Source of the DNA: Escherichia virus KFS-EC3
Reading direction: 5' to 3' (one strand)
Sequence record: MZ065353.1
DNA: 64,000 bases
Positions 12,182 through 16,208 of the stretch are shown one piece after another. The first letter of the stretch is position 1. Every line of letters starts with the position of its first letter. The position numbers and the translations under genes are program-made. The notes beneath the pieces are model-generated. The model was not told the DNA's origin. It searched no databases and saw nothing but the letters and a program-made list of their open reading frames with translations.

Positions 12182-12349
12182 ATGTCAGATAAGATTTGTG
12201 TTGTCTGTAAAACTCCAATCGATTCTGCATTGGTTGTTGAAACAGACAAAGGTCCTGTACATCCTGGGCCTTGTTATAATTACATTAAAGAACTACCAGT
12301 TTCAGAAAGTTCGGAAGAACAATTAAATGAAACACAACTTTTGCTATAG
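12182..12349 (+). CDS. uvsY.-2: uvsY.-2-like small Cys-rich protein (55 aa; not in the ORF track)
   Basis: ATG at 12182, stop TAG at 12347-12349; CxxC...C pattern (CVVCKTP...PGPC). Confidence 0.45.
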   Translation: MSDKICVVCKTPIDSALVVETDKGPVHPGPCYNYIKELPVSESSEEQLNETQLLL

Positions 12350-12404
12350 TGTGACCTTTAGTCTATAGTTTTGGCCCTTCCTTTTTGGTTGGGCCTTTTT
12401 TAAT

Positions 12405-12635
12405 TTAAAAGCTTTCTTCTACTTCATCGTCTGAATCTTCTAATTCAGCTCTTTTTCCTGCCAAAGCATCTCTCACAGAGATGTCATCAGTATCTTTTAA
12501 TTCAGTTTCTTTAACTCTTTTCTTATAATAAGCTTCAAGTTCTTCTAGACCTTCTAATGTTTGGCAAGAGGCAATTTTACCCATAAATTCATCAATAGAA
12601 GCTTCATAAAGAAATTGTTTAAATTCTAGTAACAT
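12405..12635 (-). CDS. uvsW.1: UvsW.1 (76 aa)
   Basis: The track start at 12647 is a TTG; the ATG at 12635 gives 76 aa, the T4 UvsW.1 length, with a GGAG ribosome-binding site upstream. Confidence 0.7.
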   Translation of the reverse strand: MLLEFKQFLYEASIDEFMGKIASCQTLEGLEELEAYYKKRVKETELKDTDDISVRDALAGKRAELEDSDDEVEESF

Positions 12636-12646
12636 CTTTTTCTCCA

Positions 12647-12662
12647 AAGGGCCGAAGCCCTT
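12647..12662 (-). other. stable hairpin (UUCG tetraloop on the transcribed strand) between the HNH gene and uvsW.1
   Basis: AAGGGC-CGAA-GCCCTT palindrome overlapping the HNH stop codon. Confidence 0.4.
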
Positions 12663-13353
12663 ATAAATTAACTGTTTTTCTAAGTATTCTTAGTTTGTAC
12701 ATTGATAATCCAGTAGCTTTAGAAGCATCTTTCATACATTTATACTTAACACCATTTACTTCTATAGGTTTAGCAGCTGGGTTATTAGCTCCTGAATTAT
12801 CTGGCATATTATCTTTAATTTTCTGAATAGATTTAGCGGAATGTTTCCTTCCATACATGCCATTATTTTTACCTGATTGATTGATAGAATGCAATCTTTT
12901 AGCTTCTTCAGTCCATTTTGTTGGGTTCATTCTTTTAGTTTTACTAATTTTACTTCCCCATGTAATTGGACGATTTTTCATGAGTTTTGACATATATTGT
13001 TTATGTTCTTCCGTATGGTGTTTTCCGTAAAATGGATTACCTTCACCTGATTGAAGTTCTGCCATTTTACGACGTTCCCAGGCGTAAGATTTATTAACGT
13101 GTCTTTCATGAGTCTTTGAATTCATCCCCATACATATAACGGCTTTAATTATACCGTAATGGTTTGGATGAATTTTAGCTAAAAGTTTATGAGCTATAAA
13201 ATGCTCTTCAGCTGTTAGTTCTACCAAATTACACTTATCATCTGTACCGCCCATACATCTAGGAATTATATGATGAGTTTCAGTGTATCCATTAAGGCGA
13301 GCCCGATTCTGGGCTCTATTAATTAAATTATCGTATATTAATTTATAATTCAA
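12661..13353 (-). CDS. free-standing HNH homing endonuclease (230 aa) inserted between uvsW and uvsW.1
   Basis: HNH core HHIIPRCMGG...NLVELTAEEHFIAH; C-terminal basic DNA-binding repeats; start ATG overlaps the uvsW stop (ATGA). Confidence 0.8.
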   Translation of the reverse strand: MNYKLIYDNLINRAQNRARLNGYTETHHIIPRCMGGTDDKCNLVELTAEEHFIAHKLLAKIHPNHYGIIKAVICMGMNSKTHERHVNKSYAWERRKMAELQSGEGNPFYGKHHTEEHKQYMSKLMKNRPITWGSKISKTKRMNPTKWTEEAKRLHSINQSGKNNGMYGRKHSAKSIQKIKDNMPDNSGANNPAAKPIEVNGVKYKCMKDASKATGLSMYKLRILRKTVNL

Positions 13354-14858
13354 AGTTTAACCTCTTTCATCACATAATTAAACTTCTCATCAGCATAACG
13401 CTGAATACGATCAAGTCCATGTTTTAAAAGATAGTTTAAATGCGAGTATTTTTTAGAAGATGTTTTTGATTTAGAAACTACGCCCGCGTCATCTATGAGG
13501 TCCCAGACCGTTGCGATTGTTTTAGAACCATGCTTACGTAATACGCGACCTATTGTTTGCAATACAATAATTTTAGATTTAACACCGTGTGCTAAAACAA
13601 CGTGATGCAGATTTTTAACTGAAATGCCAGTAGAAAATACACCATAACTAGCTACTATAATTATTCCTTTACCGTTTTCAGCTAAGGTTTTCATTATATT
13701 GCGGGTTTCGGTATCAACTTCCCCTGATACGTAATAAACTTTATCGTATTCATTTTTAATTAAATCGAAAATAGCTTTACCATGTGATACATGCTTAAAC
13801 ATGACAAAAGCGTTTTCATCTTTTTGCGCAAGCTTAATAGCTAATTTAGCGATCCATTTATTTCTTTTACTGAGTCCAGTAATAATTTTTATTTCTTCTT
13901 GGTAAGTTTTTCCCTTTAATTTAGTAGTGAACTCATCGGGATAGCGAAGAAAAATACTATTAATTTTTAACTCAGTTACTTGTCCATCTTCCATTAATTT
14001 AGAAGTCGTTACTGGCTTAAATATTTCACCGAACATTCCAACATACTGCATGATATTAGCTTTGCCATCACGTAATGAACCAGACAAACCGAATTTGAAC
14101 ATGCAGTTATTTAAACCTGATATGATAGATGAAATACTTTTTCCTGTGGCAAGATGGCATTCATCATTCATCATCATTCCAAACTGTGAGAACCATTCTT
14201 TCGGTTGTTTTACTACAGTTTGCCATGTACCAACAACGACTGGTGCATCATTTTTATATTTATCATCTTTTGATGCTCCACCGCCGATTTTCTTTATCAT
14301 TGCATGACTGAATAAACGATAGTCAACAAAGTCATCAGCCATCTGAGTTGTCAGAGCAGTTGTTGGAACAATGATAAGAATTTTACCTTCATAATTTTCC
14401 AAATAATAACGTGCAAGCAAAGCTTGAATTAAGGATTTACCTGCAGATGTTGGAAGATTAAGAATTCTACGACGATTAACTAATCCTTCGAACACTGCAT
14501 CTTTTTGATACCAATGCGGTTCAATTCTTTTATTTCCTGAATAGATTTCTAATTTAGAAAGCCATTCATCAAAATCTTTTCTTGATAATTCTTCTTTTTC
14601 GTTAATCTGTGGGTCAATCCAGGCTTTATAGCCAAAGTTATCACAGAACTTTTTAATTTGCCCGACTAAGCCGAATGGAAGAAGACGATTATAATCTAAA
14701 AGACGGATTCGTCCATCCCAGTTGCCATATCTGAAGCGAGGATTAAACCTATATCCATCGGCCTCAAACGAAAAGAAATCTCTTAATTCGTGGAACGTGC
14801 TCTCTTCACAATCGATGCGTACATGACTGAAGTCGTGAAAATGTACTTTAATATCCAT
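13350..14858 (-). CDS. uvsW: UvsW DNA/RNA helicase (SF2)
   Basis: 502 aa; N-terminus MDIKVHFHDFSHVRIDCEE and Walker A PTSAGKS match T4 UvsW. Confidence 0.9.
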   Translation of the reverse strand: MDIKVHFHDFSHVRIDCEESTFHELRDFFSFEADGYRFNPRFRYGNWDGRIRLLDYNRLLPFGLVGQIKKFCDNFGYKAWIDPQINEKEELSRKDFDEWLSKLEIYSGNKRIEPHWYQKDAVFEGLVNRRRILNLPTSAGKSLIQALLARYYLENYEGKILIIVPTTALTTQMADDFVDYRLFSHAMIKKIGGGASKDDKYKNDAPVVVGTWQTVVKQPKEWFSQFGMMMNDECHLATGKSISSIISGLNNCMFKFGLSGSLRDGKANIMQYVGMFGEIFKPVTTSKLMEDGQVTELKINSIFLRYPDEFTTKLKGKTYQEEIKIITGLSKRNKWIAKLAIKLAQKDENAFVMFKHVSHGKAIFDLIKNEYDKVYYVSGEVDTETRNIMKTLAENGKGIIIVASYGVFSTGISVKNLHHVVLAHGVKSKIIVLQTIGRVLRKHGSKTIATVWDLIDDAGVVSKSKTSSKKYSHLNYLLKHGLDRIQRYADEKFNYVMKEVKL

Positions 14859-14860
14859 AA

Positions 14861-15478
14861 TTATGCCTTACTAAATTTGCCTTTAGAATCTCTTTTCATG
14901 AGACGACCTTTAATAAATCCGTCGGGAATAATACCGTCTGGTTGTATTAATTTATTTATTGCGCCATTATTGACCCAAAAAGTTCCTGTTGTAGTCGGTT
15001 TGACTTTACATCCTTTTCTGGACTTTCTATTAGGATGAACCATCCCTTTTACAAATCCTTCTGGAACAAGTTCTCCAGGCTTAATAAAAATATTTTTAGT
15101 TCCATTAGTGTAACAAGTTGTACCTAATACCGTGCCCGGTGAGTTTTCAAATCTCTTAGCGGAAGATTCTTTCATCTTTGCTATAACCTCTGTAGTCATA
15201 ACAATTCCACCAATTCCACCAGGTTTCATATTATAATAATTTTTGCTTTTTATCAGTTCAGGAGTTATAATTTCTTCTTCATACATGTACGCTTCTTCGG
15301 AAGTTTTAAACTCTTTTAGTATTTTTCTAGAGAAATTGTTTTCACCATATTTCTTTATAGCCTGCTGAATTGCCTTACCGGAACCAAGGTAGCCATCATT
15401 CAGGTCGTCAGTAGAGTGCTTTCCTATATACTTTTTACCATTTATTAGATTTGTTGTTTCGTATACAAAGTGGTACAT
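14861..15478 (-). CDS. segD: GIY-YIG homing endonuclease (seg family; segD position)
   Basis: N-terminal GIY-YIG-type motif (YHFVYETTNLINGKKYIGKHS) and C-terminal repeated basic DNA-binding motifs; lies between uvsW and inh as segD does in T4. Confidence 0.65.
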   Translation of the reverse strand: MYHFVYETTNLINGKKYIGKHSTDDLNDGYLGSGKAIQQAIKKYGENNFSRKILKEFKTSEEAYMYEEEIITPELIKSKNYYNMKPGGIGGIVMTTEVIAKMKESSAKRFENSPGTVLGTTCYTNGTKNIFIKPGELVPEGFVKGMVHPNRKSRKGCKVKPTTTGTFWVNNGAINKLIQPDGIIPDGFIKGRLMKRDSKGKFSKA

Positions 15479-15527
15479 ACTATTTTCCGAGTAATAAATA
15501 TATCTATATTTATACTGAGGAAATATT

Positions 15528-16208
15528 ATGATAGATAAAGATTATATTGCAGAGCTGAAGGCTCTTGATGATAATAAAGAAGCTAAAGCTAAATTAGCTG
15601 AATATGCTGAACAGTTTGGTATAAAGGTCAAAAAGAATAAATCTTTTGATAATATCGTTAATGATATTGAAGAAGCCCTCCAGAAGCTCGCTAGTGAACC
15701 TATGCCAGAGACTGATGGGTTATCTATTAAAGACTTAATTGATGCTGCTGATGCTGCAGACGGATTAAAATATGACGATGAAGAAGTCAATCCAGAGGCA
15801 GCACTTCTGATTGATTCTCCGGTTAAATCTGACATTAAAATTGAAGTAGTAGAAACGGATAAAATTCCTGAAAATACCGATGTTTTGATTGAAGATACTC
15901 CTTTTGTTGAAGAAAAATTCGAGCAGGCTGTAGCTGAGATTATTGAATCTGAAAAGCCGTCTGTATTTACTCTTCCGGAAAACTTTAGTCCGAATCTTCA
16001 GCTGATTGGAAAAAATCCAGGATTCTGCACCGTTCCTTGGTGGATTTACCAGTGGATTGCTGAAACTCCGGATTGGAAATCTCACCCAACTAGTTTTGAA
16101 CACGCGTCAGCACACCAAACTTTATTTAGCTTAATTTACTACATTAATCGTGACGGATCAGTTCTAATTCGTGAAACACGTAATTCTTCTTTCGTAACAT
16201 TAAAATAA
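15528..16208 (+). CDS. inh: Inh-like acidic protein (putative inhibitor of prohead protease)
   Basis: 226-aa acidic protein between segD and hoc; assigned by position and length only. Confidence 0.5.
   Translation: MIDKDYIAELKALDDNKEAKAKLAEYAEQFGIKVKKNKSFDNIVNDIEEALQKLASEPMPETDGLSIKDLIDAADAADGLKYDDEEVNPEAALLIDSPVKSDIKIEVVETDKIPENTDVLIEDTPFVEEKFEQAVAEIIESEKPSVFTLPENFSPNLQLIGKNPGFCTVPWWIYQWIAETPDWKSHPTSFEHASAHQTLFSLIYYINRDGSVLIRETRNSSFVTLK

Follow-up and report, generated by a model that had tools for sequence, protein, structure and literature searches.

A predicted Mob-type HNH homing endonuclease cassette five codons inside uvsW in KFS-EC3 and other T-even phages

The free-standing homing endonucleases of phage T4 include the Mob and Seg enzymes, of which MobE, a characterised member of the MobA-E group, is encoded at the nrdA/nrdB site and cuts nrdB. 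MobA and MobE are reported to nick their targets and free-standing endonucleases to cut away from their own genes, and translation of mobE by coupling to termination of the upstream gene has been proposed (PMC2988022). Homing by SegE is proven, and flanking sequence is co-converted in the process (PMC2330249, PMC2988022). Also among the systems closest to the gene described here are the DNA-binding domain of I-TevI (PDB 1I3J/1T2T) and I-HmuI (PDB 1U3E). As to the neighbouring gene uvsW.1, its product has been established as a separate protein in T4 since the UvsW crystal structure and resequencing of Sickmier et al. (2004; PMC1524935), so that a gene arrangement of the kind discussed below does not newly demonstrate independent expression of UvsW.1, as had been suggested for it.

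The DNA analysed is a stretch of 64,000 nucleotides from Escherichia virus KFS-EC3 (MZ065353.1; hereafter the window), which belongs to a Tequatrovirus, i.e., a T4/T6-like phage (best record match 98.5% over 24 kb). An earlier note on this DNA described a recent, clean insertion of an HNH endonuclease gene precisely between uvsW and uvsW.1. We consider it likely from the sequence comparisons that the gene is a promoter-less Mob-type free-standing homing endonuclease cassette that entered the late segE-uvsW-uvsW.1 unit 18 nt inside the ancestral uvsW. Read along the minus strand, the locus begins with a segE orthologue (14861..15478; 205 aa, GIY-YIG homing endonuclease, 96-100% nucleotide identity to T4 segE), which lies directly upstream of uvsW, so that a homing endonuclease gene stands on either side of the latter. 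The uvsW helicase gene (13350..14858; Pfam UvsW_N, ResIII/DEAD and Helicase_C) is followed by the endonuclease ORF (12661..13353; 230 aa) and by uvsW.1 (12405..12635 from the ATG at 12635; ORF as listed 12405..12647; Pfam UvsW-1, PF11637, E 1.7e-30), all in the same orientation. Both neighbours are intact, as the earlier note held (uvsW 502 aa, uvsW.1 76 aa, by ORF listing and Pfam), and uvsW.1 is 100% identical to the T4-type copies.

That a 230-aa ORF of endonuclease type occupies the uvsW/uvsW.1 boundary is borne out by the protein searches: two NUMOD3 repeats score above the Pfam cut-off (51.8 bits vs 20.4), PHROG 655 ('homing endonuclease') matches with E 1.6e-61, and the Pfam HNH match is weak, at 16.8 bits under a gathering score of 21.4. 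The protein consists of an HNH nuclease module at approximately residues 1-75 (13129-13353), NUMOD3 repeats at approximately residues 94-122 (12988-13074) and 157-185 (12799-12885), and an I-TevI-like helix-turn-helix at approximately residues 195-225 (12679-12771). In an alignment of 73 homologous sequences H27/H28, N42, H51 and H55 show no or almost no variation, and the motif can be aligned with HNH domains from a group II intron maturase and from Cas8-HNH. The AlphaFold2 model (pLDDT 89 overall) places strands at residues 25-28 and 43-46, then a helix at 48-61 with pLDDT 96-97. Residues 1-75 are 44-59% identical to T4 MobB/C/D and the remainder is unrelated to them, with a C-terminus that resembles the DNA-binding domain of I-TevI. 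The gene is thus classed, by its predicted domains, as a Mob-type free-standing HNH homing endonuclease that is the orthologue of no T4 mob gene. Its TIGR01453 score is 30 bits against a cut-off of 56, and the 'group I intron endonuclease' labels found in some GenBank records reflect name transfer only. An Rfam intron search of 12200-15700 matched no group I intron or other intron model; with no such match, with uvsW ending at its own stop and with the ORF filling the insert, an intron-encoded gene was ruled out.

Pairwise and multiple alignments against the empty-site Tequatroviruses (T4 and about 450 records) delimit a 689-bp insert at 12679..13367 on the minus strand, essentially all of it ORF, which lies 18 nt (five codons and the stop) upstream of the native uvsW end. 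With the empty T4 junction as query, alignment to a carrier genome picks up again exactly 18 nt ahead of that end. The insertion is consequently not exactly at the junction, nor precisely between the genes, but five codons inside uvsW, for which it supplies a substitute 3' end. In KFS-EC3 the element-borne end reads AAA GAG GTT AAA CTT TGA (KEVKL*; 13350..13367, minus), and the native end, AAA ACA GTT AAT TTA TAA (KTVNL*; 12661..12678, minus), now terminates the endonuclease ORF. Whereas uvsW of empty-site phages ends NYVM-KTVNL*, that of KFS-EC3 ends NYVM-KEVKL* and its HNH ORF ends LRILR-KTVNL*; these last five codons and stop are identical in T4, LH2, OES_C-2 and the IMG/VR empty-site phages. 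Because the HNH ORF ends on the native uvsW codons, the hairpin and ribosome-binding context of uvsW.1 is left untouched. This context consists, in order from the HNH stop, of the hairpin AAGGGC-UUCG-GCCCUU (12647-12662), the GGAG ribosome-binding site (12642-12645; whole feature 12642..12662, minus) and the uvsW.1 ATG. The earlier note had correctly seen both the hairpin and the GGAG; since they are present unchanged in phages without the HNH gene, they are ancestral intergenic sequence outside the insert.

The same architecture recurs outside the Tequatroviruses. A substitute end of the design AAAGAGGT...TTGAATTAT is also found in the Dhakaviruses PSD2002 and Bp7, and one of the design CAGGTGG...TTGAATTAT in Gapriverviruses. 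PSD2002 has KEVQI upstream of its HNH gene, which ends with the native KQVDL* of JS98, and the Gapriverviruses TH40 and SP18, compared with the empty site of VR7, carry a 19-nt exact direct repeat, TAATTAAACAGGTGGAAAT (KQVEI/KQVEI). Duplicated terminal codons of uvsW around the gene in three genera are, as read from these alignments, an insertion signature.

A clean and recent insertion that filled just the intergenic space and began with an ATG over the uvsW stop would agree with the intact neighbours and with an ORF that abuts both of them; it is contradicted by the position of the insert 18 nt inside uvsW with its substitute 3' end, and by the start codon itself. The plus strand reads TCAA at 13350-13353, which makes the start/stop overlap TTGA, i.e., a TTG start over the TGA stop of uvsW, rather than the ATGA first described. 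An in-frame TAA stands two codons upstream of this TTG and the first internal methionine of the protein is residue 34, within the HNH catalytic motif, leaving TTG as the only plausible start. The same TAA rules out a UvsW-HNH fusion produced by frameshifting. The TTG-AAT-TAT start with its TTGA overlap is kept in the Dhakavirus and Gaprivervirus homologues; the Jiaodavirus copy alone has ATGA. A GAGG Shine-Dalgarno sequence (13361-13364) lies 7 nt upstream of the TTG (13351-13353), within the substitute uvsW codons, and the overlap of a weak TTG with the TGA points to low expression, coupled to translation of uvsW. An inverted repeat of 7 bp, rich in GC, at 13299-13316 (GAGCCCGATTCTGGGCTC, plus strand), which falls 37-54 nt into the endonuclease reading frame and shortly after the TTG, is predicted to form an mRNA hairpin that might damp translation.

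The motif scan found a single exact T4 late-promoter consensus within 12200-15700, TATAAATA (15507..15514, minus), which is upstream of segE and likely serves as the promoter of a segE-uvsW-HNH-uvsW.1 transcript; as this is the only exact consensus, the HNH gene is probably a promoter-less passenger of that late transcript. Scans of the region for sigma-70 promoters and terminators gave no excess over shuffled sequence.

Both the gene and its location are already in GenBank, annotated, and the mobile element is an ordinary one with no novelty, as follows from the presence of the same gene at the same spot in T6 and about 47 other records; for genome annotation, the HNH gene is a routine mobile element. 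In total it occurs in approximately 48 of approximately 498 Tequatrovirus records, at 96.5% nucleotide identity or more and always adjoining uvsW, and approximately 450 records (about 90%) have an empty junction. With a 2.7-kb query this arrangement was recovered, 97-98.5% identical, from T6, Yersinia phage PST, EC121, HY03, ACG-C40 and others. The carrier copies are mostly labelled 'homing endonuclease' in GenBank (T6ORF179 in T6; AXN58218), and our literature searches found no paper characterising the endonuclease of the uvsW/uvsW.1 junction. Its absence from T4, on which the claim of an insertion had depended, holds: the modern T4 sequence has uvsW (502 aa), 25 nt and uvsW.1 (76 aa). The T4 RefSeq record NC_000866 has a fused 587-aa uvsW and is likewise without the HNH gene. 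This fusion of uvsW and uvsW.1 is a historical sequence error, two bases being missing around TTA-TAA-GGGC (locus L001, 3160-3200), and the modern T4 sequence OL964735 (locus L108) has uvsW and uvsW.1 as two ORFs. Several other irregularities of annotation touch the locus: T6 (MH550421, 3551-5058) splits uvsW into 'uvsW' and 'uvsW-B' and differs from KFS-EC3 by one internal indel, the HNH gene is called 'GIY-YIG' in Nispero, UvsW is called 'U3 small nucleolar RNA-associated protein' in the Roth phages, and UvsW.1 appears as 'DNA helicase' in several public records.

Homologues at the same junction are found in Dhakavirus (PSD2002, Bp7), Gaprivervirus (TH40, SP18 and others) and Jiaodavirus (Nispero and the Roth phages), and the association of gene and site, being present in at least four genera, is therefore old. 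Could the gene then be ancestral at uvsW/uvsW.1 in T-even phages and have been deleted in T4 and most of its relatives? The homologues at one junction in at least four genera would fit such a history, which we nevertheless regard as very improbable. Alongside the empty majority of the Tequatroviruses, every other genus examined has members that lack the gene: Dhakaviruses and Gapriverviruses each include filled and empty members, and JS98, VR7 and the IMG/VR loci (scans with the HNH protein and UvsW.1 returned few T-even loci, of which a handful were empty) lack the insert. At all these empty sites, those of the Tequatroviruses included, the junction is identical and seamless. Deletion would have had to occur independently and precisely many times to leave such junctions, and it is further opposed by the duplication of the uvsW terminal codons at filled sites and by the inter-genus level of divergence in the adjoining uvsW tract of carrier Tequatroviruses, which indicates import.

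Variant endonucleases also occupy the junction in Bp7 (260 aa; locus L101, 2208-2990) and in Yersinia phage vB_YenM_P8 (NUMOD1-type). These share the TTG-AAT-TAT start and first codons or the HNH module and have a different C-terminal DNA-binding region, a pattern that resembles the shuffling of domains at one fixed site.

The divergent uvsW tract spans 13350..13490 on the minus strand and was delimited by a sliding-identity profile, alignments and counts. Within it, 41 of 141 nt (29%) differ from T4, compared with 0-10% in 50-nt bins over the remainder of uvsW, and the sequence directly downstream of the insert is 100% identical to that of HNH-less Tequatroviruses. The insertion is thus not a clean one, since the approximately 141 nt of adjoining uvsW form a foreign haplotype. 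The tract includes a recoded loop in which VVSKSKTSSKKYS replaces VKPKSANTKKKYV (KSANT to KSKTS). All 48 carrier records have this 3' haplotype in common, and HNH-less records reach at most approximately 93% identity to it over the last 204 nt, LH2 and OES_C-1/2/3 matching at 91.6-93.1%. The two of these four that were examined, LH2 (locus L103, 2001-2211) and OES_C-2 (locus L104, 2001-2210), have the recoded loop VVSKSKTSSKKYS together with an empty, native KTVNL* junction, with a crossover at approximately window positions 13437-13442; they could be recombinants from which the gene was lost, or resistant alleles.

A comparable tract is present in Dhakavirus PSD2002, whose uvsW is 77-85% identical to that of JS98 over its final 300 nt and 93-99% over the remainder, and whose loop change (KSANA to KSKDS) is partly convergent with the Tequatrovirus recoding. 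In the carrier Gapriver- and Jiaodaviruses uvsW retains the wild-type sequence, and the linked tract was not seen in Gaprivervirus; a recoded loop that serves as a universal immunity or target site was ruled out on this account. Searches for a donor of the foreign tract found none, the best matches outside Tequatrovirus being 68-73% identical, and derived states are shared mildly with the Dhakavirus HNH+ haplotypes (18-19 vs 14-15 of 41 sites). From the carrier-linked haplotype, the loop-bearing phages with empty sites and the wild-type Gapriver- and Jiaodaviruses, the tract is best read as a co-converted foreign flank. Such a flank is typical of co-conversion or immunity.

A 23-nt stretch of uvsW, AAAAAGAAATATGTTCATTTGAA (equivalent to window positions 13424-13446), has at most two differences among HNH-less phages of at least five lineages (loci L108, L107, L105, L092, L093 and L098, third codon positions included) and is altered in KFS-EC3. 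Its conservation even at third positions suggests a constraint beyond coding, and the stretch could be the endonuclease target or an embedded signal. As an alternative to a target in the tract, a candidate target may span the insertion point. It is possible, and we put it forward tentatively as something we would not ourselves bet on, that the final ~140-300 nt of uvsW travel with the HNH gene between T-even genera as one composite cassette, in which the recoded loop and terminal codons would confer immunity to nicking at AAAAAGAAATATGTTCATTTGAA. If so, each homing event would also replace the C-terminal end of a recombination helicase, and LH2 and OES_C, as HNH-less phages with the loop, would count as resistant 'escapees'.

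The other end of uvsW presents a similar picture. Its first ~150 nt (14701-14858) are 98-100% identical to those of segE+ phages (T4, LH2, T6) and 68-82% identical to those of segE-less Tequatroviruses (IMG/VR loci L087 and L088; OES_C-2), and this segE-linked 5' tract mirrors the HNH-linked 3' tract. The carrier phages ZN18, BF15 and W143 appear to be without segE (95% query coverage), which suggests that the segE and HNH elements assort independently. As uvsW is bracketed by two endonuclease genes, each with a linked tract, the T4-, LH2- and T6-type sequences offer natural substrates for target mapping.

Nor does the age of the gene accord with a recent arrival. Between KFS-EC3 and T6, third-codon-position divergence is 0.082 for the HNH gene and 0.068 for uvsW, i.e., on a par, and homologues 58-69% identical in amino acid sequence are found at this site in a further three genera. 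This synonymous divergence equal to that of uvsW, and the occurrence of the gene in T6, 47 other records and other genera, join the TTGA overlap and the position inside uvsW in leaving the recent, clean, intergenic insertion scarcely credible.

Purifying selection acts on the ORF, with a dN/dS of 0.06 in the comparison with T6 and of 0.13-0.29 in those with other genera, and none of the seven HNH copies examined contains a frameshift or stop. These values bear on two further explanations. A stranded, immobile remnant, whose nuclease is inactive or for which every available target is resistant, has a precedent in the defunct T4 endonuclease I-TevIII (PMC2988022), and both the TTG start, with the weak expression it suggests, and the sub-threshold Pfam HNH score would suit it. 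We think a remnant unlikely given the low dN/dS and uninterrupted copies, the invariance of the catalytic His/Asn/His and the empty T4-type site that is still there in about 90% of Tequatrovirus records. The same strong purifying selection would be expected of a nuclease co-opted beyond its own spread, either for marker exclusion, which is documented for T4 Seg/Mob enzymes (PMC2988022, PMC2330249), or for the initiation of recombination with UvsW/UvsW.1, and the location within a recombination/repair operon would favour such a role. Although compatible with homing, co-option seems to us unlikely, as the gene is missing from some 90% of close relatives; nor was specific evidence of a host-beneficial role found.

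Under the preferred reading, that of a promoter-less homing cassette within uvsW, the element equips uvsW with five new terminal codons and a TGA that also encode its own GAGG ribosome-binding site, and the HNH protein would be translated weakly from the TTG, coupled to termination of uvsW. During mixed infection the enzyme would introduce a nick or cut into the genome of a non-carrier phage, in the uvsW 3'/uvsW.1 region, and T4-type recombinational repair would then copy the gene into that genome along with ~140-300 nt of the adjoining uvsW. What the sequences show is the domain composition, the conservation of the catalytic residues, the limits of the insert, the scattered occurrence of the gene, the uvsW haplotype linked to it and the purifying selection; nuclease activity, target position, homing, TTG coupling and late transcription are inferred. 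In its corrected anatomy the element starts at TTG, lies five codons within uvsW, gives uvsW a replacement 3' end bearing a ribosome-binding site and borrows its C-terminus from the host gene, and the enzyme is an apparently uncharacterised member of the Mob family whose insertion site is shared across four genera.

Compared with known systems, the copies in T6, PST, EC121, HY03, ACG-C40, W143 and BF15 are the nearest, with 96.5-100% nucleotide identity, the same position, TTG, flanks and uvsW 3' haplotype, and no material difference. The PST copy (AGR46130) is labelled mobD/MobE; 'mobD' and 'MobE' are misnomers here, since the similarity to T4 MobD is confined to the first ~75 aa. The likeness to T4 MobA-E lies in the homologous N-terminal HNH module, in nucleotide similarity to mobE/mobB and in a promoter-less cassette with the orientation of its neighbours, and, for mobE, in a start that overlaps the stop of the upstream gene (UAAUGA in mobE; PMC2988022). 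It differs from MobA-E in its C-terminal region, which here consists of two NUMOD3 repeats and the I-TevI-like helix-turn-helix, in its insertion site at uvsW/uvsW.1, which is empty in T4, and in taking its last five codons from the host gene; among the T4 free-standing endonuclease genes only mobA has a non-AUG start, whereas the KFS-EC3 gene uses TTG. With T4 SegE it has in common that a free-standing homing endonuclease flanks uvsW and that the adjacent ~150 nt of uvsW form an endonuclease-linked divergent tract, but SegE belongs to the unrelated GIY-YIG nuclease family and sits at the opposite end of uvsW.
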